Notes under the pieces: model-generated | Databases searched by the model: none | Told to the model about the DNA's origin: nothing | Seen by the model: only the letters and a program-made list of their open reading frames with translations | IMG/VR virus record: IMGVR_UViG_3300033067_000620 | Location: 1-44,335 of that record | Source of the DNA: a virus | Taxonomy: Duplodnaviria > Caudoviricetes | Direction: 5' to 3' (one strand) | Length of the DNA: 44,335 bases | Shown: piece after piece, positions 1 through 44,335 of the stretch | Layout: every line of letters begins with the position of its first letter | How positions within the stretch are numbered: the stretch's first letter is position 1 | Program-made: the position numbers and the translations under genes

Positions 1-244
1 TGGGTATCACTCAGGTAAAATTACGTTGATACTTGGTGCTACTCATATATATGGTAATCATTATCTTAAAGGTAGAAAATATATTGAACAAGCAGTAGAT
101 TTATTTGGACCTAAAGATGCTGAAGTTAAACCTGTTACATTTAGATTAGCTAATTATGCAACAGTATTTAACTTTCATCCTAATATGGTATCAGTAGATA
201 ATTATACTCATATGCCAGCAATAAAATTTGATCTAAATGTATAG
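1..244 (+). CDS. C-terminal part of thymidylate synthase-family protein (continues from window end)
   Basis: Frame is open from position 2: GYHSGKITLILGATHIYGNH...HMPAIKFDLNV. This matches the ThyA GDxHxY motif and the typical C-terminus, and is in frame with the ORF leaving the right edge. Confidence 0.9.
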   Translation, partial: GYHSGKITLILGATHIYGNHYLKGRKYIEQAVDLFGPKDAEVKPVTFRLANYATVFNFHPNMVSVDNYTHMPAIKFDLNV

Positions 245-253
245 GAGCTAACA

Positions 254-838
254 ATGCAAAATATAAGTGTTATTGAAAGAGTAATAAAATGGAACGCTAA
301 ACGTTATGATAGAATATATAATCATGACTTGACAGAATCATTACTTTTAGAAGAAGCTAATGAAATTAAAGAAGCTAAAAATATAGTTGACATATTAGAT
401 GGTTGTGGTGATGTTACTTTTGTAGCTATTGGAGCTTTATGGAAATTAGGTTTAAGTCAAAAAGAAATAGAAGCTTTATTTATAGATAAGAATTTAGCTG
501 GTAAAGCCATATGGGAATTAAATGGTATATTTCTTGCTGCATCTGAAGATATACTAGGTAATACTAAATTAAGATTAACTACAAATAAAGCTGTACTACA
601 AGATAGAATTGGTTTAATATTAGGTTATGTATTAGGTGTTTTAACTCAATTAGATAAACTTGATTTACAGCATGAATTTCTTCCTATACTAAAAGCTATA
701 TGTGATAGTAATGATACTAAGGAAGTTAAAGGAAAGACTGACCCTAGTATTAAAGCTAACATAGTTAAAGGTAATCAGTATGTTCCACCTACTGATGATT
801 TAATTAAAATTTGTGAGATGAATGGAAAGGAATACTAA
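254..838 (+). CDS. All-alpha NTP pyrophosphohydrolase (MazG-like / PRA-PH-like)
   Basis: EEANE...DILDGCGDVTFVAIG acidic metal motif plus ICDSNDTK and KGNQYVPP; RBS AGGAG upstream. Confidence 0.75.
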   Translation: MQNISVIERVIKWNAKRYDRIYNHDLTESLLLEEANEIKEAKNIVDILDGCGDVTFVAIGALWKLGLSQKEIEALFIDKNLAGKAIWELNGIFLAASEDILGNTKLRLTTNKAVLQDRIGLILGYVLGVLTQLDKLDLQHEFLPILKAICDSNDTKEVKGKTDPSIKANIVKGNQYVPPTDDLIKICEMNGKEY

Positions 839-1497
839 TGACAAAATGGTTTTCAAAAAATGAAATTCATAAATTGTGTATTGAAGAAGCATCTAAGTCA
901 ACAGCTTTAAAACGTAAAGTGGGTGCTATATTAACTTGTGTTTACGAAGGTGAATATGAGATTTTAGCTAGTGGGTATAATCAGAATTCCATAGGTCCTA
1001 CTTTTGCTTGTGAAGATACAAAAGGTAATACTTTAGATAATGTTATACATGCAGAGCAAAATTGCATAAATAACTTTTTAACCTGTAGACTATTTAAAAC
1101 AGAATATACGTATAAAATGTTTATTACTCATGACCCTTGTCCAGGTTGTTTAGCTGCATTAGTTAAATATGATATTTCTTATGAAGTAGTTGGTGAATTT
1201 ATGAAGTTTGATAAAGCTAAACTTCGTATGTCTCTAGTTCCAGCTTCATTAGCTCAATCTTGTGCTCGTGCTTTACAATATGGAGCTAGGAAATATAAAG
1301 TAGGTAACTGGCGTAAAACTCCAGATATTGAAAGTTATATTTCAGCCATGCAACGTCACTTTGATGCTTGGCGTGAAGGTGAAGAAATTGATAGTGAAAG
1401 TGGTCTAAATCATCTTGACCATATGGCAGCTAATTTAGCTTTTCTAATTGAGCTAAGGGACCTACCTAAAATTAAAGATGAATCAATCAAGTTATAG
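838..1497 (+). CDS. dCMP deaminase-like domain fused to DUF5664 (dATP/dGTP diphosphohydrolase N-terminal-like) domain
   Basis: N-half: KVGA, SGYN, HAE and PCPGC zinc motifs. C-half: KFDKAKLRMSLVP, YGARKY..NWRK, RH..AW..GEEIDSESGLNHLDH. Confidence 0.85.
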   Translation: MTKWFSKNEIHKLCIEEASKSTALKRKVGAILTCVYEGEYEILASGYNQNSIGPTFACEDTKGNTLDNVIHAEQNCINNFLTCRLFKTEYTYKMFITHDPCPGCLAALVKYDISYEVVGEFMKFDKAKLRMSLVPASLAQSCARALQYGARKYKVGNWRKTPDIESYISAMQRHFDAWREGEEIDSESGLNHLDHMAANLAFLIELRDLPKIKDESIKL

Positions 1498-9459: not shown

Positions 9460-12141
9460 TTATGCAAAACCTTGTCTTAATCCTACTAAATACATTTTTG
9501 TCCCATCTGAATAAAATCTTAGCCAATCTTTTTTATTAGCTGTGATAGTTAAAGTAGGTAAGCCTACAGTACCACCATCGTATAAAGTATCATAAGCTAA
9601 AGTACGACTTCCTGTAGCATCTTGTATTACGAATAAATCATAATAAGCACCAGCTTGCATATTGGTTGGATTTGCTAATGTTCTATTACCACCTAAAGTA
9701 ACAAATGCTTCTTGTGCTGTATCTAAATTCCAAGCTATGGAAGCTGCATCTATTAAACTTTTTGAAGCAAAATATTGCTGTTTAGTAAATGCGTTTACAG
9801 TATTTTTAAATTCAGAATTTAAGCCTATAATAGGTTTTACACAAGCTGGAGTTTGATATGCAAGAGTTTGTTCTAATAAATTAAGATTAAAATTAGTTCC
9901 TGTTTGTAAATGTAACGGTTGTTTAGCATAACTAATAGACCATAATGCATTAGTGCCTGAACCAGTAGTTTCTGTAACTGTTACAACTAGGGCTCCAGTA
10001 CCACTATTATATGATTCAATTATACCTATCATTTGTTTATCAATAGTGCCTGTTGTACTTCCATTAATATAAACTTTTTCTTTTGCTACAAAGAAATCTG
10101 CGGGTAATCCCGTAGTAGTGGTAAAAGTTTTACTACCTGTTCCAACAGTAATAGATGTAGTTGAAGGCATAGCTTGAAAAGTATTTTTTGGTAACATACT
10201 AGAACCAGCATTCATAAACACTTCACCAGTATAACCATTTACATTTTCTAAATGAGTAAAACTATGTAAATAAGGGAAATTAGATGGTGCCGTACTAGCT
10301 GGATAACCTCCTCCATATTCACCTTTACAATTAAAAGCATTAGATATATGGGCTAATCCAGCATGACAAGAAGCTAATTTCCATGAGGTGATACTTTTAC
10401 TAGTATCACCAAATACGTTTAATACATGTAATTGAACTATACCGGTAGTATTAGCATAATTTGTAACTCTAGCAAACATATAATTACGAGGGTCTGTAGT
10501 GTCATATACTATTACAGGCATACCACTAAAGAATTGCCTAAAATAAAATACACCAAAATCAAAAGGTATATTAAAAGTTATAGCTACTCCAGTAGCCGTA
10601 GTTGTAGCATTATCGCTAATTGTAACTTGTGTTGAACTATCAATAGAAGTTATATAAGTACCTAAATAATTAAAAGGCACAGCACCTACTACTGTTTGGC
10701 CTATAAATAATCCAGCAGTACTTGGTATATTTGTTATAATTTTAGACCCTGTAGTTATATTACCTGTAGTAGCTAGGTAGGCTCCAGGTATAGTAAAAGT
10801 ATCTAATGAAGCAGAAATAGCTGTAGCTAATGTTTTACCAGAAGTAGTTATTGCATATTCCATTTTGTTTAAATTATTTGGAGCAGCATATAACCATAAT
10901 TTATCTATAAATACTTCAGCAGCTTGGTCTATATCTAAAAGATAGTCCATAGCGTATTCATTATTTTCAATTTTACAATTATCTAAAAATATGTCAATTA
11001 TATTTTGGCCATGTATACGTAGTCCACAACCAGCACAATTTTCAATACGAAATCCTGTCCATATTTGGTTATTAGAGGTTGAATTACCTGTATCAGTAGA
11101 ATTAATAGTTATTGCAGCTTTAGCTTCGAATGTAACTGTGCGAGTTCCAGTATAATTAGCTGCAGTAGATAATACTAAAGTTGTTCCATTGGTAATACTA
11201 GCTATTCTAACTGTTTGTAATCCTGTGCCGTAAATACGTTGACCTCTATATAAACCAGTAGTACTAGATACAGTAGCTGTAGTAGAGCCATTTGTCATGG
11301 TCATAGATTTATTATACCCATTATGTTGACCACACCAAGTAACACGAATATTATTAAAACGGCTATCCATTACTTCTCGTAACATTACACCGCCTAATGC
11401 TTGTGTAATAACAGCATTATTCCAAAAGAATTCATACCCTGCTTCTGCATAAAGTACAGGATAATCTGCACTTGTATCAAATCTATCCCAACCACCATTT
11501 ATTGTTATATCACGAACATTGACTTGCGCAATTAAAGCGTTATAGCCTGTTACAGCTAATGATGTACCAATAAATCTAAAACCTGCATAACTAACTGTAC
11601 GAACCCAATGCGGAGTATAAGCTTTACCATCTGCAGAACCTATATCACCGATAAAATTAATAAAACCATTACGAGCGCCAAGAATATAAGGAAAATCGAT
11701 AAATGTATTAAATCGATAGTAGCCTGTTGGTGTTATCGGAGGTGGGGTATAAATTGTATTACGGTTATTAGTAACACAATAAGCTATAGCTTTACGTAAA
11801 GCAGTACCATCTAATTCATCTGTTAATGATGTTGCTTGAGGATATACTACTTGTGCATCAACTAAGGTGGCAAAGTCTAATGATAAAGGATGAGCTACTC
11901 CATTACCAATAGCACCAAAATCAATAACATTAACTGGAATTGAACGTACAATAGCAACTAATGAAGCTGCTACTGTTTGAATGTCTACTATATTATCTGC
12001 TACAGTTACAACAGCATTAATATTATTAGCTACAGTAACTACTGAAGATAAAGCTGCATTAACAGCAATTGTTTCTGGTGCAGCTGTTCCAGCTATGCCA
12101 CGATTACCTTGTCTACCCATTCTTACTTTAATTACGCTCAT
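9460..12141 (-). CDS. Tailspike / depolymerase with beta-helix (pectate lyase-like) domain
   Basis: VNVIDFGAIGNG...D..ALRKAI beta-helix cap, N-terminal VVTVA.NI repeats, Thr/Gly-rich inserts, C-terminal QDATGSRTL domain. Confidence 0.85.
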   Translation of the reverse strand: MSVIKVRMGRQGNRGIAGTAAPETIAVNAALSSVVTVANNINAVVTVADNIVDIQTVAASLVAIVRSIPVNVIDFGAIGNGVAHPLSLDFATLVDAQVVYPQATSLTDELDGTALRKAIAYCVTNNRNTIYTPPPITPTGYYRFNTFIDFPYILGARNGFINFIGDIGSADGKAYTPHWVRTVSYAGFRFIGTSLAVTGYNALIAQVNVRDITINGGWDRFDTSADYPVLYAEAGYEFFWNNAVITQALGGVMLREVMDSRFNNIRVTWCGQHNGYNKSMTMTNGSTTATVSSTTGLYRGQRIYGTGLQTVRIASITNGTTLVLSTAANYTGTRTVTFEAKAAITINSTDTGNSTSNNQIWTGFRIENCAGCGLRIHGQNIIDIFLDNCKIENNEYAMDYLLDIDQAAEVFIDKLWLYAAPNNLNKMEYAITTSGKTLATAISASLDTFTIPGAYLATTGNITTGSKIITNIPSTAGLFIGQTVVGAVPFNYLGTYITSIDSSTQVTISDNATTTATGVAITFNIPFDFGVFYFRQFFSGMPVIVYDTTDPRNYMFARVTNYANTTGIVQLHVLNVFGDTSKSITSWKLASCHAGLAHISNAFNCKGEYGGGYPASTAPSNFPYLHSFTHLENVNGYTGEVFMNAGSSMLPKNTFQAMPSTTSITVGTGSKTFTTTTGLPADFFVAKEKVYINGSTTGTIDKQMIGIIESYNSGTGALVVTVTETTGSGTNALWSISYAKQPLHLQTGTNFNLNLLEQTLAYQTPACVKPIIGLNSEFKNTVNAFTKQQYFASKSLIDAASIAWNLDTAQEAFVTLGGNRTLANPTNMQAGAYYDLFVIQDATGSRTLAYDTLYDGGTVGLPTLTITANKKDWLRFYSDGTKMYLVGLRQGFA

Positions 12142-33799: not shown

Positions 33800-34192
33800 A
33801 TGACAAGAATTAATTGCATACCACCTTCTGAATTAATTAATAAACATTTATTAGCTGAATATAGAGAATTACCTCGCATATTTAAATTAGCTCGTAAAGC
33901 AAATGATGCACCAAAGTTATATTGTTTGGGAACAGGTCATATGAAGTTCTTCTTTGATAAACTAATTTATTTAGTTAAGCGACAAGAAGAAATAATTAAA
34001 GAGATGATAAAACGAGGTATGAAGCCTAATTTTAGAGCTGAAGATTTATGGCAATATCATGAAAAAGCTGGTGGTAATTGTGAATCATCTTTATGGAATG
34101 ATTGGATTCCTACTCAAGAAGCAATGAGAATAAACAAAGCAAGAATTGAAGAACGCTTAATAGAAATGAAAGTTAAAAGCCATGCAGTTTGA
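33800..34192 (+). CDS. denV: Pyrimidine dimer DNA glycosylase / endonuclease V
   Basis: MTRIN...EL..KHLLAEYRELPRIF, LGTGHMKFFFDKL; catalytic Thr2 and Glu23 as in T4 DenV. Confidence 0.95.
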   Translation: MTRINCIPPSELINKHLLAEYRELPRIFKLARKANDAPKLYCLGTGHMKFFFDKLIYLVKRQEEIIKEMIKRGMKPNFRAEDLWQYHEKAGGNCESSLWNDWIPTQEAMRINKARIEERLIEMKVKSHAV

Positions 34193-40779: not shown

Positions 40780-41340
40780 ATGGTTGATACTTTTTATGGA
40801 ACAAAAAAAGTCATAGCTGCATCTATGACTAGAGCACAATATAATAAATATCGTGGTTGGGATTTACCTAAAGATGAAAATGGCGCCGATGAAGGCTATT
40901 TAGTTGAGTACATGGATGGTGGAAAGCCAAATATGAAAGAACATGAAGGATATGTTAGTTGGTCTCCTAAGGAGCAATTTGAAAAAGCTTACCAAAGTGC
41001 AACTTTTGACTCATTATCTTTTAGTCATGCTTTATTTGCTCTTAAAGAAGGTAAAGCAGTAGCTCGTTCTGGTTGGAATGGTAAAGGTATGTATATCTAT
41101 CTAGTTCCAGCAAATAGTTATCCTGCACAAACAAAAGTAGCAATTGACTATTGGAGTAAGCAACCAAATGTAGAATTTAAAACTCATTATGGTGATAGTC
41201 TTGCAGGTATACCAGACCAACAAATTCCTCTTGTACCTTATGGAGCCTATCTAGCTATGAAAACTGCTCAAGGTAATGTTGTACCTTGGTTAGCTTCACA
41301 AACAGATATAATTGCTGATGATTGGGCTGTTGTAAATTAA
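40780..41340 (+). CDS. SWSPK-domain protein fused to DUF2829 / Tad2-like domain
   Basis: N-terminal EGYLVEY.DG...YVSWSPKEQFEKAY; C-terminal FSHALFALKEGKAVARSGWNGKGM...VPWLASQTDIIADDW. Confidence 0.85.
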   Translation: MVDTFYGTKKVIAASMTRAQYNKYRGWDLPKDENGADEGYLVEYMDGGKPNMKEHEGYVSWSPKEQFEKAYQSATFDSLSFSHALFALKEGKAVARSGWNGKGMYIYLVPANSYPAQTKVAIDYWSKQPNVEFKTHYGDSLAGIPDQQIPLVPYGAYLAMKTAQGNVVPWLASQTDIIADDWAVVN

Positions 41341-41387: not shown

Positions 41388-41597
41388 ATGAATCAGAAAA
41401 GACGTGTAAGAGCCAATAATAAAGCAACTACTAAATACGAAGTTAATGGACGTTGTATTAATCAAATAACTACTGAAATTGGTAAATGGGCAAATGGTGA
41501 AATTAAATTAAGAATTTCATACATTCATGTAACTAAAGGTAAGAAATATAGGATATTACCTCCTTTATTTAATAGAGTTTTAAATATTTATAACTAA
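41388..41597 (+). CDS. Small basic hypothetical protein
   Basis: Likely start MNQKRR at 41388; the upstream part of the called ORF overlaps a pseudoknot. Confidence 0.45.
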   Translation: MNQKRRVRANNKATTKYEVNGRCINQITTEIGKWANGEIKLRISYIHVTKGKKYRILPPLFNRVLNIYN

Positions 41598-41622
41598 TAT
41601 ATACAAGTTAAGGAAATAACTC

Positions 41623-43296
41623 ATGTATTCTAAATTAACTTTACCTGATGTAGTAAAATTAGTAGACCATAGTAAACCATTAATGTTTGACACTGAAACA
41701 ATTGGTTTATATGGTAAAATACGTCTAGCTCAATTTTATCAAACTGGTTGGGAATTACCTATATTAGTTGAATATCCTAACCCTTATGAATTAGTTTCTT
41801 TATTATCAAAACAACATGTAATAATGCACAATGCTCATTATGATATAACTACAATACAAGAAAATATAGGTGGACAAGTTTGGATGCCTGAAAAGTTTGA
41901 CTGCACATTTTTATTATCTCGTTTGCATTATTTTTTACGTGAAAGCTTTAGTTTAGATTCAGTTGTAACTTATACATTAGGTTTTAATCCTTATGAAGGT
42001 ACAGATTTACAAAAGTCTGACTGGGGTGCAATAATATTATCAGAAGAGCAGTTAGAATACGCAGCAAAAGACGTAGTATATTTACAAGCTGTTTATGATG
42101 CAGTTAAAAAAGCAGAAGATGACAATAGCTATAAATTAGATATGCTATGTTTGCGTTACTGCTTAGATTTTCAAAATAATGGTATGCCTATAGATACTAT
42201 TAGGCTTGAAGATAGATATGCAACTAACACAAAAAGAATTAAAGAAATAGGTTTAACTATTAATGTTAATAGTTATCAACAAGTTAGACCTTATATTGGC
42301 TCTATAATGTCAGATGACTTAGGCTTAGCTAGATTAGCAGGTCAAGGAAATGAAAAAGCTGTTAATGTTCGTGAAACTAGGAAACTAATTAAGAATAACT
42401 CTTTTTTAACTAAGTTTCAAAATACTATGGTTGATGCAGGTCCTTACCATGTTATTAAAGGTAAGTTTAAAGTATCTGCACGCTCAGGTAGAACTACTTC
42501 AGATGACCAGAATCTTCAACAGTTACCTCGTAATCTAAAGTCTATATTTGGTTTACCAATGGATGGTGAAGAAGTAATTATATTTTCCGATTTTGCTCAA
42601 ATACAGTTACGTTGTGTTTGTGTTAAAACTGGTGATAAAACTATGGAGAAGTTATTTAGAGCTTTTGAAGATTTACATAACTTCGTAGCTAAAATGATAT
42701 TCGGTGAAAACTTTACAGAAGAGCAAAGACAAATATGTAAGACTGCAAACTTTGGTTTATTATTTGGTGCTGGTGTAGAGGTATTTATTAACATACTTTT
42801 AAAACAAGCTGGACTGTGGTTATCTATTGAAGCTGCTGAAAAAGTTAAAAGAAAATGGTCTAGCTTATGGACTGAAATAACTAATTGGCAGAAACAAGGT
42901 ATTAAAGATTGGAAAAAAGGTTTACCTTGGGAAACACCATTAGGTCGTCGTTATGTATCTAAAATGATGACTGACCAATTAGCTATGCAAATTCAAGGCT
43001 TTGAAGCTGAAGTAGCTAAGTTAGCTATGCACTATATGTTACCTAGATTAAAGTTCCTAGATGAGAGAATAAAACTAGTTAACTTTGTACATGACAGTTA
43101 TATATTTATTGGTCCTAACGAAGAAAATATATATAAAGAAGCTTCTATGATAATAGCTACTGCAATGCAAGAAGCTTGGGCTGAAATGTGTACAGAAGTT
43201 ACTATCAAAGACTTACCTATGCCTGTTAAAGTAAGGGTAGGTTGGAATTGGGGTGATATTGAAAAAGGTAAATTTATTTATGAACATATTCAGTAG
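41623..43296 (+). CDS. polA: DNA polymerase family A with 3'-5' exonuclease domain
   Basis: FDTET (ExoI), HNAHYD (ExoII), YAAKD (ExoII I), SGR, NLQQLP, DFAQIQLR (A), KTANFGLLFG (B), VHDS (C). Confidence 0.95.
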   Translation: MYSKLTLPDVVKLVDHSKPLMFDTETIGLYGKIRLAQFYQTGWELPILVEYPNPYELVSLLSKQHVIMHNAHYDITTIQENIGGQVWMPEKFDCTFLLSRLHYFLRESFSLDSVVTYTLGFNPYEGTDLQKSDWGAIILSEEQLEYAAKDVVYLQAVYDAVKKAEDDNSYKLDMLCLRYCLDFQNNGMPIDTIRLEDRYATNTKRIKEIGLTINVNSYQQVRPYIGSIMSDDLGLARLAGQGNEKAVNVRETRKLIKNNSFLTKFQNTMVDAGPYHVIKGKFKVSARSGRTTSDDQNLQQLPRNLKSIFGLPMDGEEVIIFSDFAQIQLRCVCVKTGDKTMEKLFRAFEDLHNFVAKMIFGENFTEEQRQICKTANFGLLFGAGVEVFINILLKQAGLWLSIEAAEKVKRKWSSLWTEITNWQKQGIKDWKKGLPWETPLGRRYVSKMMTDQLAMQIQGFEAEVAKLAMHYMLPRLKFLDERIKLVNFVHDSYIFIGPNEENIYKEASMIIATAMQEAWAEMCTEVTIKDLPMPVKVRVGWNWGDIEKGKFIYEHIQ

Positions 43297-43361
43297 TCCT
43301 ATGACAACAGTTTTACTAATAATTATAATATTAATTTTAATCGCTGAATAAGGAGAATAAT

Positions 43362-43565
43362 ATGGTTGCTCAAAATATTTGTCATGCTTGTGAAGATAGA
43401 TTTAATGTTGGTGATAAAGTTATAAAAGATAGTGGGGATTATAAATTTGAAGGTGTAGTTGTTGCTGCATTTTATAAGTTATCTGGTGCACCTCGTTATG
43501 TAGTAGAAGATGATAGAGGTATATTACATGTATATAGTTTTAAAAATCTTAAGCTTAGGAGTTAG
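43362..43565 (+). CDS. SH3-fold protein resembling type II (DfrB/R67) dihydrofolate reductase
   Basis: FNVGDKVIKDSGDYKFEGVVV...YVVE..G ILHVY...L aligns with R67 [20 protein letters not shown]...YAVE...GSVQIY...L; AAGGAG RBS. Confidence 0.6.
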   Translation: MVAQNICHACEDRFNVGDKVIKDSGDYKFEGVVVAAFYKLSGAPRYVVEDDRGILHVYSFKNLKLRS

Positions 43566-43566
43566 T

Positions 43567-43764
43567 ATGGAAGGGTTTGGAATGTTTGTAGCATTGCTAT
43601 TATTTTTAATAGCTATAGTTGGTTCAATGGTCTGTATAAATATAGCAGTAACTAATTATAATTTAGATAAAAATACTTGGCGTTGTACTAAAACAGAAAT
43701 AATTGGTACTTCACCTAATAAACATGAAGTCTGTTTACAATATACAAATAAGAAAGTAAACTAA
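43567..43764 (+). CDS. Small membrane protein
   Basis: AGGAG RBS before MEGFGMF; one TM helix and a periplasmic Cys pair. Confidence 0.6.
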   Translation: MEGFGMFVALLLFLIAIVGSMVCINIAVTNYNLDKNTWRCTKTEIIGTSPNKHEVCLQYTNKKVN

Positions 43765-43766
43765 TT

Positions 43767-44335
43767 ATGAAATTAGCTAACTGGGAAATAAGCCAATATG
43801 TGCCATTAATACAAAAGATTATGGCTAAAGGTGAAGCTCGTGAAACTCGCGCAGGTAAAGCCTATTCTTTATTTGGTGAAACATTAGATATAGATACTCA
43901 AGATTTTCCATTACTACGTGGTCGTAAAATGTATTATAAATCTGTATTAGGTGAATTAGCTGCAATGTTACGTGGCGCCAAAACAGTACAAGAATTTCAA
44001 GAATTTGGTTGTAATTATTGGAATGACTGGGGTGATAAAGAAGGTAATCTAATATTAGATTATGGTACTTCTTGGATAGATTTTAATGGTGTAAATCAGC
44101 TACAACAGTTAGTTGATACACTTAAAACTAATCCTAATGATAGGCGTATGATTATATCAGGTTGGCGCCCAGATAGGCTTAAAGATTTATCATTGCCTTG
44201 CTGCCATTTACTATATCAATGGTATTTAAGAGAAGGTAAATATTTAGATATGATTTGGTACCAGCGTAGTGTTGATGTTATGATTGGTTTACCTAGTGAT
44301 ATAATATTTGCAGCTATGTGGAATAAACTATTAGC
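43767..44335 (+). CDS. Thymidylate synthase-family protein, dCMP-type (N-terminal 189 codons; runs off window; not in ORF track)
   Basis: My translation: MKLANWE...FPLLRGRK..YKSVLGEL...NYWNDW...DYG..W...NQL...LKTNPNDRRMIISGW...LPCCHLLYQW...YQRSVDVMIGLPSDII. Confidence 0.92.
   Translation, partial: MKLANWEISQYVPLIQKIMAKGEARETRAGKAYSLFGETLDIDTQDFPLLRGRKMYYKSVLGELAAMLRGAKTVQEFQEFGCNYWNDWGDKEGNLILDYGTSWIDFNGVNQLQQLVDTLKTNPNDRRMIISGWRPDRLKDLSLPCCHLLYQWYLREGKYLDMIWYQRSVDVMIGLPSDIIFAAMWNKLL

Follow-up and report, generated by a model that had tools for sequence, protein, structure and literature searches.

A predicted 5-methyl-dCMP module in a 44-kb podovirus genome and its Kafunavirus-like relatives

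The stretch of DNA analysed here (the window; all 44,335 nucleotides of IMG/VR record IMGVR_UViG_3300033067_000620) is a near-complete podovirus genome of 44 kb with 31% GC, and around its two ends it carries a nucleotide-metabolism module composed of a family A DNA polymerase (PolA), a DfrB-like dihydrofolate reductase (DHFR) candidate, a thymidylate synthase (TS) homologue, an NTP pyrophosphohydrolase (PPase) and a deaminase-DUF5664 fusion. From its residue signatures and from comparative analysis, the module probably (probability about 0.78) makes 5-methyl-dCMP from dCMP for the phage DNA, with 5-methylcytosine (5mC) predicted at most or all cytosines, as in phage Xp12. This reading is adopted because the TS residues Asp177, Leu143 and Asp169 (E. 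coli numbering) match a published code, because Asp occupies the specificity site in nearly all related TS proteins, and because assays of similar enzymes (Yang et al., 10.1101/2024.12.05.627091), the gene cluster of Xp12 and a contrast in restriction-site avoidance among relatives point the same way. An earlier, sequence-only reading had put the pathway forward as new. The gene set is real, and the pathway is of a known kind, since the same set of TS (Asp177), deaminase, PRA-PH and PolA is described in the accessible text of Yang et al. and Xp12 is similar; the interest lies rather in what the module predicts for cultured Kafunavirus-like phages and in a lead on the kinase step. The genes, with lengths in amino acids (aa), are as follows.

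41623..43296, + strand: family A DNA polymerase (3'-5' exonuclease and polymerase), 557 aa (PF00476 E 4.9e-33; PF01612; PHROG)
43362..43565, + strand: candidate DfrB-like (R67-type, SH3-fold) DHFR, 67 aa (homologue clusters, fold search, tetramer model)
43510..43764, + strand: 84-aa open reading frame (ORF) with a hydrophobic stretch; no family match in Pfam or PHROG, probably not a pathway part
43767..44335, + strand: N-terminal 189 aa of the TS homologue, a predicted dCMP methylase (PF00303 E 2.9e-46)
1..244, + strand: C-terminal ~80 aa of the TS, the same gene split by the contig end (PF00303 E 4.7e-05, PF00303 positions 195-265)
254..838, + strand: PRA-PH/MazG-like all-alpha NTP pyrophosphohydrolase, 194 aa (PF01503 E 1e-4; phrog_671 E 2.2e-12)
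838..1497, + strand: deaminase-DUF5664 fusion (PF00383 E 1e-11; PF18909 E 1.2e-27)
838..1191, + strand: Zn-dependent dCMP-family deaminase domain of the fusion (HAE at His71, PCxxC at Cys101)
1192..1497, + strand: DUF5664 helical domain of the fusion (PF18909)

The thymidylate synthase homologue and its partners

In an alignment with solved ThyA enzymes, Asp178 of the window TS (44298-44300) stands at the position of Asn177, as the sequence-only reading had noticed, while the catalytic Cys146 and the residues Leu143, His147 and Asp170 (= E. coli D169) are all canonical. According to the code given in the accessible text of PMC13326640, for which PMC8670742 is a further source, N177D specifies dCMP as substrate, Leu143 a methyl product and D169N 5-hydroxylation; work cited in both papers reports that the Asn-to-Asp exchange by itself turns ThyA to dCMP. 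The window enzyme lacks the D169N hydroxylase change, and its signature is that of a published 5-methyl-dCMP synthase. The earlier proposal of a dCMP-directed chemistry that transfers a methyl rather than a hydroxymethyl group and has a DHFR partner thus agrees with Asp178, Leu143, Asp170 and the DfrB-like ORF, as far as sequence can tell. Among 62 distinct TS proteins from related loci, 58 have Asp and two have Asn at the 177 position (two could not be parsed). The window TS is ~39% identical to T4-like td, 53-58% identical to the two Asn relatives and 25% identical to the Xp12 TS, so that the TS of this clade likely arose from ThyA separately from the Xp12 enzyme; it would be an Xp12-like function in a separate, ThyA-near lineage and not an Xp12 ortholog. 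Three TS motifs sought in four eLife supplementary files were absent from them.

The closest known systems include the 5-methyl-dCMP synthase module of Xanthomonas phage Xp12 and a set of metavirome gene neighbourhoods. The DNA of Xp12 contains 100% 5mC (PMC7653180, accessible text), and its genome holds DHFR, deaminase, TS and PPase genes consecutively and near PolA; AXL1 has the same cluster (PMC9206674, likewise in part). Xp12 and the related siphoviruses AXL1 and PaMx74 share with the window an Asp177/Leu143-type TS, a PF00383 deaminase, a PF01503 NTP-PPase, a DHFR and a PolA, and neither Xp12 nor the window has a recognisable deoxynucleoside monophosphate (dNMP) kinase. The Xp12 DHFR is of the FolA type, whereas the window candidate is of the DfrB type; the Xp12 PolA is distant, a DUF1599-like domain is fused to the Xp12 PPase where the window has DUF5664 fused to the deaminase, and the Xp12 group are siphoviruses, in contrast to the 44-kb podovirus with 31% GC analysed here. 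In the accessible text of Yang et al., PF00383 deaminases lie beside TS, PRA-PH and PolA in cytosine-modified metavirome contigs, and the window has each of the five Pfam domains that lead the co-localisation ranking in their Fig. 1B; MetaGPA (PMC8670742) is a second source for neighbourhoods of this kind. Five of the seven such Asp177 TS enzymes assayed there made 5mdC, and the deaminase mSCD-B5 deaminated 99% of 5mdCTP versus 4% of dCTP and did not act on dCMP or 5mdCMP. The window deaminase has the HAE/PCxxC motifs and stands in cis with an Asp177 TS, as in mSCD; the selectivity of mSCD for 5mC over C is a polyphyletic trait, present in 34 of 56 active candidates. It differs from mSCD-B5, a single-domain protein of 154 aa, in its fusion to DUF5664, and the text of Yang et al., to the extent accessible, mentions neither DUF5664 nor a fusion nor dihydrofolate.

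In the proposed pathway, the Asp177/Leu143 TS would methylate dCMP with methylene-tetrahydrofolate and release dihydrofolate, which a tetramer of the DfrB-like protein would recycle to tetrahydrofolate. The PRA-PH/MazG-like enzyme, likely a dCTPase and/or dUTPase, would convert dCTP to dCMP, both removing canonical cytosine and supplying the TS; 5-methyl-dCMP would be phosphorylated by host kinases or by the DUF5664 domain, and PolA would place 5-methyl-dCTP opposite G. The deaminase would divert part of the 5-methyl-dC nucleotide to thymidylate. The sequence-only reading had opposed a 5mC-substituted genome to a route to dTMP that bypasses dUMP; they are not opposed in the accessible text of Yang et al., and the two are probably one pathway, 5mC substitution with deaminase diversion as a side branch. 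The likely benefit to the phage would be resistance to restriction enzymes that are blocked by C5-methylcytosine.

The 67-aa ORF is a candidate DfrB-type DHFR, an assignment made earlier from sequence and now favoured more by fold than by sequence matches. The latter are weak (PF06442 E 0.21; R67 DHFR is the top match of a profile against PDB, E 0.19), and a phmmer search of PDB with the single sequence did not retrieve DHFR, which the profile and fold searches alone did. With the predicted model (pLDDT 85.5), R67 DHFR fills Foldseek ranks 1-7 (E 1.2e-3 to 2.7e-3, TMq 0.68-0.72), all of these matches lying above E 1e-3 and Tudor domains following at 1e-2. Homologues form 63 clusters; Lys22, at the position of DfrB1 Lys32, is near-invariant among 58 homologues, and the B4-strand motif is LHVY. 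A four-copy model scored 0.67 versus 0.00 for the best of three controls, with at least 78% contact agreement between runs and a pLDDT of 75 or more. Of the cases used for calibration, 20 of the 30 true pairs passed, as did 1 of the 23 single chains; that setting differs from a four-copy job, and the score may reflect resemblance to solved R67 tetramers. PMC12486381 reports, in its accessible text, activity for cluster II DfrB homologues that bear LHIF or LHIY and places them near viral ThyA genes. The window ORF resembles this cluster in its SH3 fold, LH[IV][YF] B4 motif, Lys32 equivalent, viral origin and nearness to ThyA; the cluster is taken there as supporting dTMP synthesis, whereas the partner TS in the window is of the Asp type. 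The SAR11 phage Pelagibacter phage Kolga has a related arrangement, in which gp36 (locus L036, 7544-7996) is a DUF1599-DfrB-like fusion; an Asp-type TS comes immediately downstream and then a PPase, so that this phage may also carry 5mC.

Relatives, restriction-site avoidance and rival explanations

The nearest named phages are Edwardsiella KF-1, IW-1, ETP-1 and ZHX, Vibrio VPMS1, Pseudoalteromonas PH1 and Dickeya Amaethon. The four whose TS was inspected (KF-1, VPMS1, PH1 and Amaethon) all have Asp at 177, under the annotation of plain thymidylate synthase; these Kafunavirus-like podoviruses share the PolA-TS-PPase order with the window, with TS and PolA 44-54% identical, and differ in lacking a DfrB gene and in having Glu/Tyr rather than Gln/Phe in PolA motifs A/B. 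Related loci were collected from IMG/VR, 31 by TS and 78 by PolA (from the best 80 of 154), and 49 loci with an Asp-type TS (Asp-TS loci; IMG/VR plus two GenBank records) were kept after duplicates and loci ending just after the TS had been dropped, their TS proteins being never more than 82% identical in pairs. The co-occurrence of the five genes, which the sequence-only reading had offered as a check, is borne out in these loci for the deaminase (44 near the TS) and the PPase (42) and fails for the DHFR (6, of which 2 are DfrB-like and 4 FolA-like); the DfrB-like protein, found at 2 of the 49, is an optional helper. Members of the clade have also lost or exchanged parts of the module. VPMS1 (complete) and G014 (98%) have an Asp-TS and no deaminase in the whole record; in G014 the TS is adjoined by a gene of a PHROG dNMP-kinase family (E 2.7e-10) and the rest of the module is absent. 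G001, which the PolA tree places inside the Asp members, no longer has TS, PPase or deaminase. G012, also nested in the Asp clade, encodes in this order a divergent TS of the hydroxymethylase type, a carbamoyltransferase, a deaminase and a PPase (locus L090, 11784-15567), and its modification cassette is swapped. In three distant relatives (L109, L110 and L116), a divergent gene of the TS fold is found together with DUF6378 and a gene resembling C5 DNA methylases (PF00145 E 1.7e-22 in L109).

Avoidance of restriction sites, measured as observed counts versus maximal-Markov expectations, differs between relatives with and without the TS. The comparison set 45 Asp-TS sequences (9 whole records and 36 loci of 10-22 kb) against 7 relatives in which PF00303 had no match (four being 98% complete or more); L089/G010, which has Asp in its sequence, was in neither group. 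A separate set of 8 control loci, two with Asn and six TS-less, likewise excludes L089/G010 and does not enter the counts. CCWGG fell below an observed/expected ratio of 0.3 in none of the 45 Asp-TS sequences and in 5 of the 7 TS-less relatives (e.g., 2 versus 51.4 expected in G001, inside the Asp clade), and strong avoidance of at least one of the 17 sites at which Xp12 DNA is blocked was seen in 7/45 versus 6/7 (Fisher p 5e-4, kinship ignored). GATC, a site at which Xp12 DNA is cut by DpnII and MboI, was avoided in 20 of the 45. The window itself has 32 CCWGG versus 35.5 expected and 8 GATC versus 82.6 expected; GATATC and GAATTC are also strongly depleted, and GGCC, CCGG, GCGC and CCWGG stand at expectation. 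This contrast favours real genome methylation at the level of the clade and is no proof for the window phage. Three close relatives (L047, L049 and L050) avoid GANTC instead of GATC, which may point to alphaproteobacterial hosts.

Several observations weigh against a 5mC genome. The avoidance contrast is drawn from kin sequences, a minority of which have a known host, and BstNI does cut CCWGG in Xp12 DNA. The complete Asn-TS relative G008 avoids 0 of the 17 sites and CCWGG avoidance is seen in just 3 of 6 unrelated phages, so that non-avoidance in one genome is weak evidence. A PRA-PH gene is lacking from 7 of the 49 Asp-TS loci, and a DHFR lies nearby in just the six counted above. The low identity of the window TS to the Xp12 enzyme is accompanied by His147 where Xp12 has Pro, at a position that differs between modified and unmodified contigs in MetaGPA (PMC8670742). 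In the accessible text of Yang et al., the other two of the seven assayed Asp-TS enzymes gave no 5mdC. Codon 38-40 of the window encodes Ala where 48 of 48 related TS have Asp, a residue near the contig end and known from the contig sequence alone. Finally, no report of base modification in KF-1, VPMS1, PH1 or Amaethon was found in a literature search that covered mostly work outside subscription journals (PMC8472413, in its accessible part, included).

Three other explanations were weighed. That the TS and deaminase serve only as a thymidylate bypass, making dTMP and dTTP via 5-methyl-dCMP while the DNA remains canonical, is improbable. The frequency of the deaminase near the TS fits such a role, as does the proposal in the accessible text of Yang et al. 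that such deaminases yield dTMP from 5mdCMP. The Asp-TS is kept, however, without a deaminase in VPMS1 and G014, the sites avoided by TS-less relatives are not avoided by Asp-TS members, and the use by mSCD-B5 of the triphosphate instead of 5mdCMP implies that 5mdCTP is present in the pool of the polymerase. The failure to find a recognisable P-loop dNMP kinase in the window, which the sequence-only reading took as favouring the bypass, loses its force, because a scan of 48 Xp12 ORFs likewise gave no match to dNMP-kinase families and yet Xp12 DNA is fully substituted.

We give equally little credence to the possibility that the Asp-TS of this clade is mainly a dUMP enzyme and that the cluster is an ordinary dTTP supply (dCMP deaminase, dUTPase, TS and DHFR). 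The window TS is indeed nearer to canonical ThyA than to the Xp12 TS, it keeps His147, and its two Asn relatives are close; the PPase of VPMS1 is annotated as DR2231-like, a family that we take to be dUTPases. Against this stand the sufficiency of the Asn-to-Asp exchange for dCMP use, the prevalence of Asp among the related TS proteins and the site-avoidance contrast. Least probable is a product with a different C5 modification of cytosine (5-hydroxymethyl or 5-hydroxy), or 5mC at a small share of cytosines only. The cassette swap of G012 suggests that the slot tolerates other chemistry, and members without a PPase might substitute only partly; Leu143 and Asp169 are nevertheless kept, the window ORFs scanned gave no glycosyltransferase or carbamoyltransferase match, and a DHFR-like gene lies beside the TS. 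If the preferred reading of a 5mC-substituted genome holds, substituted DNA is also predicted in PH1 and in cultured phages studied for biocontrol (the KF-1 group, VPMS1 and Amaethon), which matters for how well they resist type II restriction and how sensitive they are to modification-dependent nucleases, and the clade would be a source of more deaminases from the family used in methylome sequencing.

A possible kinase slot in the module

The 49 Asp-TS loci contain DUF5664 (30 loci), DUF6378 (16) or a P-loop dNMP kinase (3), never together and with a sum that covers all 49. The slot of the P-loop kinase, between PPase and deaminase, is the slot of DUF6378 in tree neighbours (L060 versus L062; L091 versus L075 and L098), and its content switches at least 10 times over 43 tree tips. 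Among DUF5664, DUF6378 and a P-loop kinase-like gene, each of the 15 clade records that are at least 90% complete has one and no more. Two Xp12-type modules (L209, and L198, which is cut at its start) carry this P-loop kinase as a fusion with the PPase, in the place that the DUF1599-like domain takes in Xp12. Mutual exclusion, full coverage and slot swaps together suggest that the DUF5664 and DUF6378 domains do the job of a kinase, and a kinase role for domains of the DUF5664, DUF6378 and DUF1599 types is possible on this pattern, at slightly less than an even chance. A phage-induced 5-methyl-dCMP kinase was reportedly described in Xp12-infected cells in the 1980s. T7, which has the non-P-loop kinase gp1.7 (DUF3310), lacks DUF5664 and DUF6378; gp1.7 resembles DUF5664 in being a small non-P-loop domain in replication modules, and none of five phages chosen for DUF5664 has a gp1.7 match.

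Other evidence counts against a kinase. In the accessible text of PMC12884076, the DUF5664 protein of the Z-genome phage Wayne, of the same Pfam family as the window domain, is a slow dATP/dUTP/dGTP pyrophosphohydrolase in vitro (kcat 0.05-0.48 per s), and the word kinase is absent from that text. Neither DUF5664 nor DUF6378 showed profile similarity to gp1.7, or either to the other (for DUF5664 versus DUF3310, hhalign gave a probability below 1%, from a shallow alignment compared with one sequence). Both domains also occur in TS-less phages and are therefore not specific to 5mC, and the P-loop kinase family is mostly unlinked to TS (at 75 of its 80 loci, the 4 kb around it contain no TS). In a fold search, the best match of DUF5664 is AF_0060 (weak; Z 6.6, root-mean-square deviation 4.3, 82 residues aligned), presumably of MazG-like fold, a match that cannot tell a kinase from a pyrophosphatase. 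For the window domain, a non-canonical dNMP kinase and a further dNTP pyrophosphohydrolase are the candidate functions.

A wider proposal, tentative and somewhat doubtful as a whole, is that the Kafunavirus-like podoviruses may be an unrecognised 5mC-genome lineage whose dCMP methylase came from ThyA independently of Xp12, that DUF5664, DUF6378 and DUF1599 may be non-P-loop dNMP kinases or phosphotransferases for 5-methyl-dCMP, and that the window fusion may phosphorylate the 5-methyl nucleotide and split it between 5mdCTP and dTTP. The literature search described above, in the texts accessible to it, found no proposal of a kinase role for any of the three families. For the kinase step of 5mC phages, which has no assigned gene, the gene-swap pattern points to a definite candidate, and it offers an idea of function for three widespread phage DUF families. 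Two side observations concern the same proteins: locus L101 encodes a PPase-deaminase-DUF5664 triple fusion as one protein of 395 aa (10383-11570), and PHROG families 2252 and 5033, which bear the label 'endolysin; inhibits RNA polymerase', match the DUF5664 domain, the endolysin label being likely a propagated misannotation.

Polymerase, record ends and neighbouring genes

The window PolA, whose best PDB profile matches are 8jrb (E 2e-60) and the Prex polymerase (Aquificae/apicoplast-type kin), does have altered active-site residues, as the sequence-only reading described (Gln328, Phe381 and Ser492 in motifs A, B and C, respectively), the first two of which we take to correspond to Klenow Glu710 and Tyr766. 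Their place as an element of the pathway was not sustained, and an adaptation to 5mC was rejected: the His-Asp-Ser motif C is clade-wide and includes TS-less relatives, and the Gln328/Phe381 pair marks one PolA subclade (tree support 0.998), most Asp-TS members having Glu/Tyr. DpoZ also has Phe at the motif B position (PMC10201439, accessible text). The Gln/Phe pair is a curiosity that the pathway does not require. In L088 and L101 the PolA gene is split into two ORFs, ~700 bases apart in L088, possibly by a mobile insertion.

The description of the module as one contiguous + strand run once the ends are joined holds for the genes and for the TS reading frame, which is kept across the end-to-end join (43767-44335 to 1-244). 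It does not hold for the join itself, since no terminal overlap was found between the record ends, the record is classed as linear, and ~3 codons appear to be missing from the TS, because 29 residues separate the equivalents of Asp/Asn177 and His207 in 47 of 48 distinct related TS and 26 in the joined window. One contig of sequencing run X2 spans 41500-44335 with zero differences to the window; it may be the source of the record and is thus not an independent confirmation. Run X1, with a share of 0.11, was left out of account for habitat.

Two further genes of the window are of note. A Tad2-like (Thoeris anti-defence) gene (40780-41340; PF11195 E 1.4e-24) lies just upstream of PolA, and a DenV pyrimidine-dimer glycosylase is encoded at 33800-34192 (PF03013 E 1.8e-15), as is one in the annotation of VPMS1.

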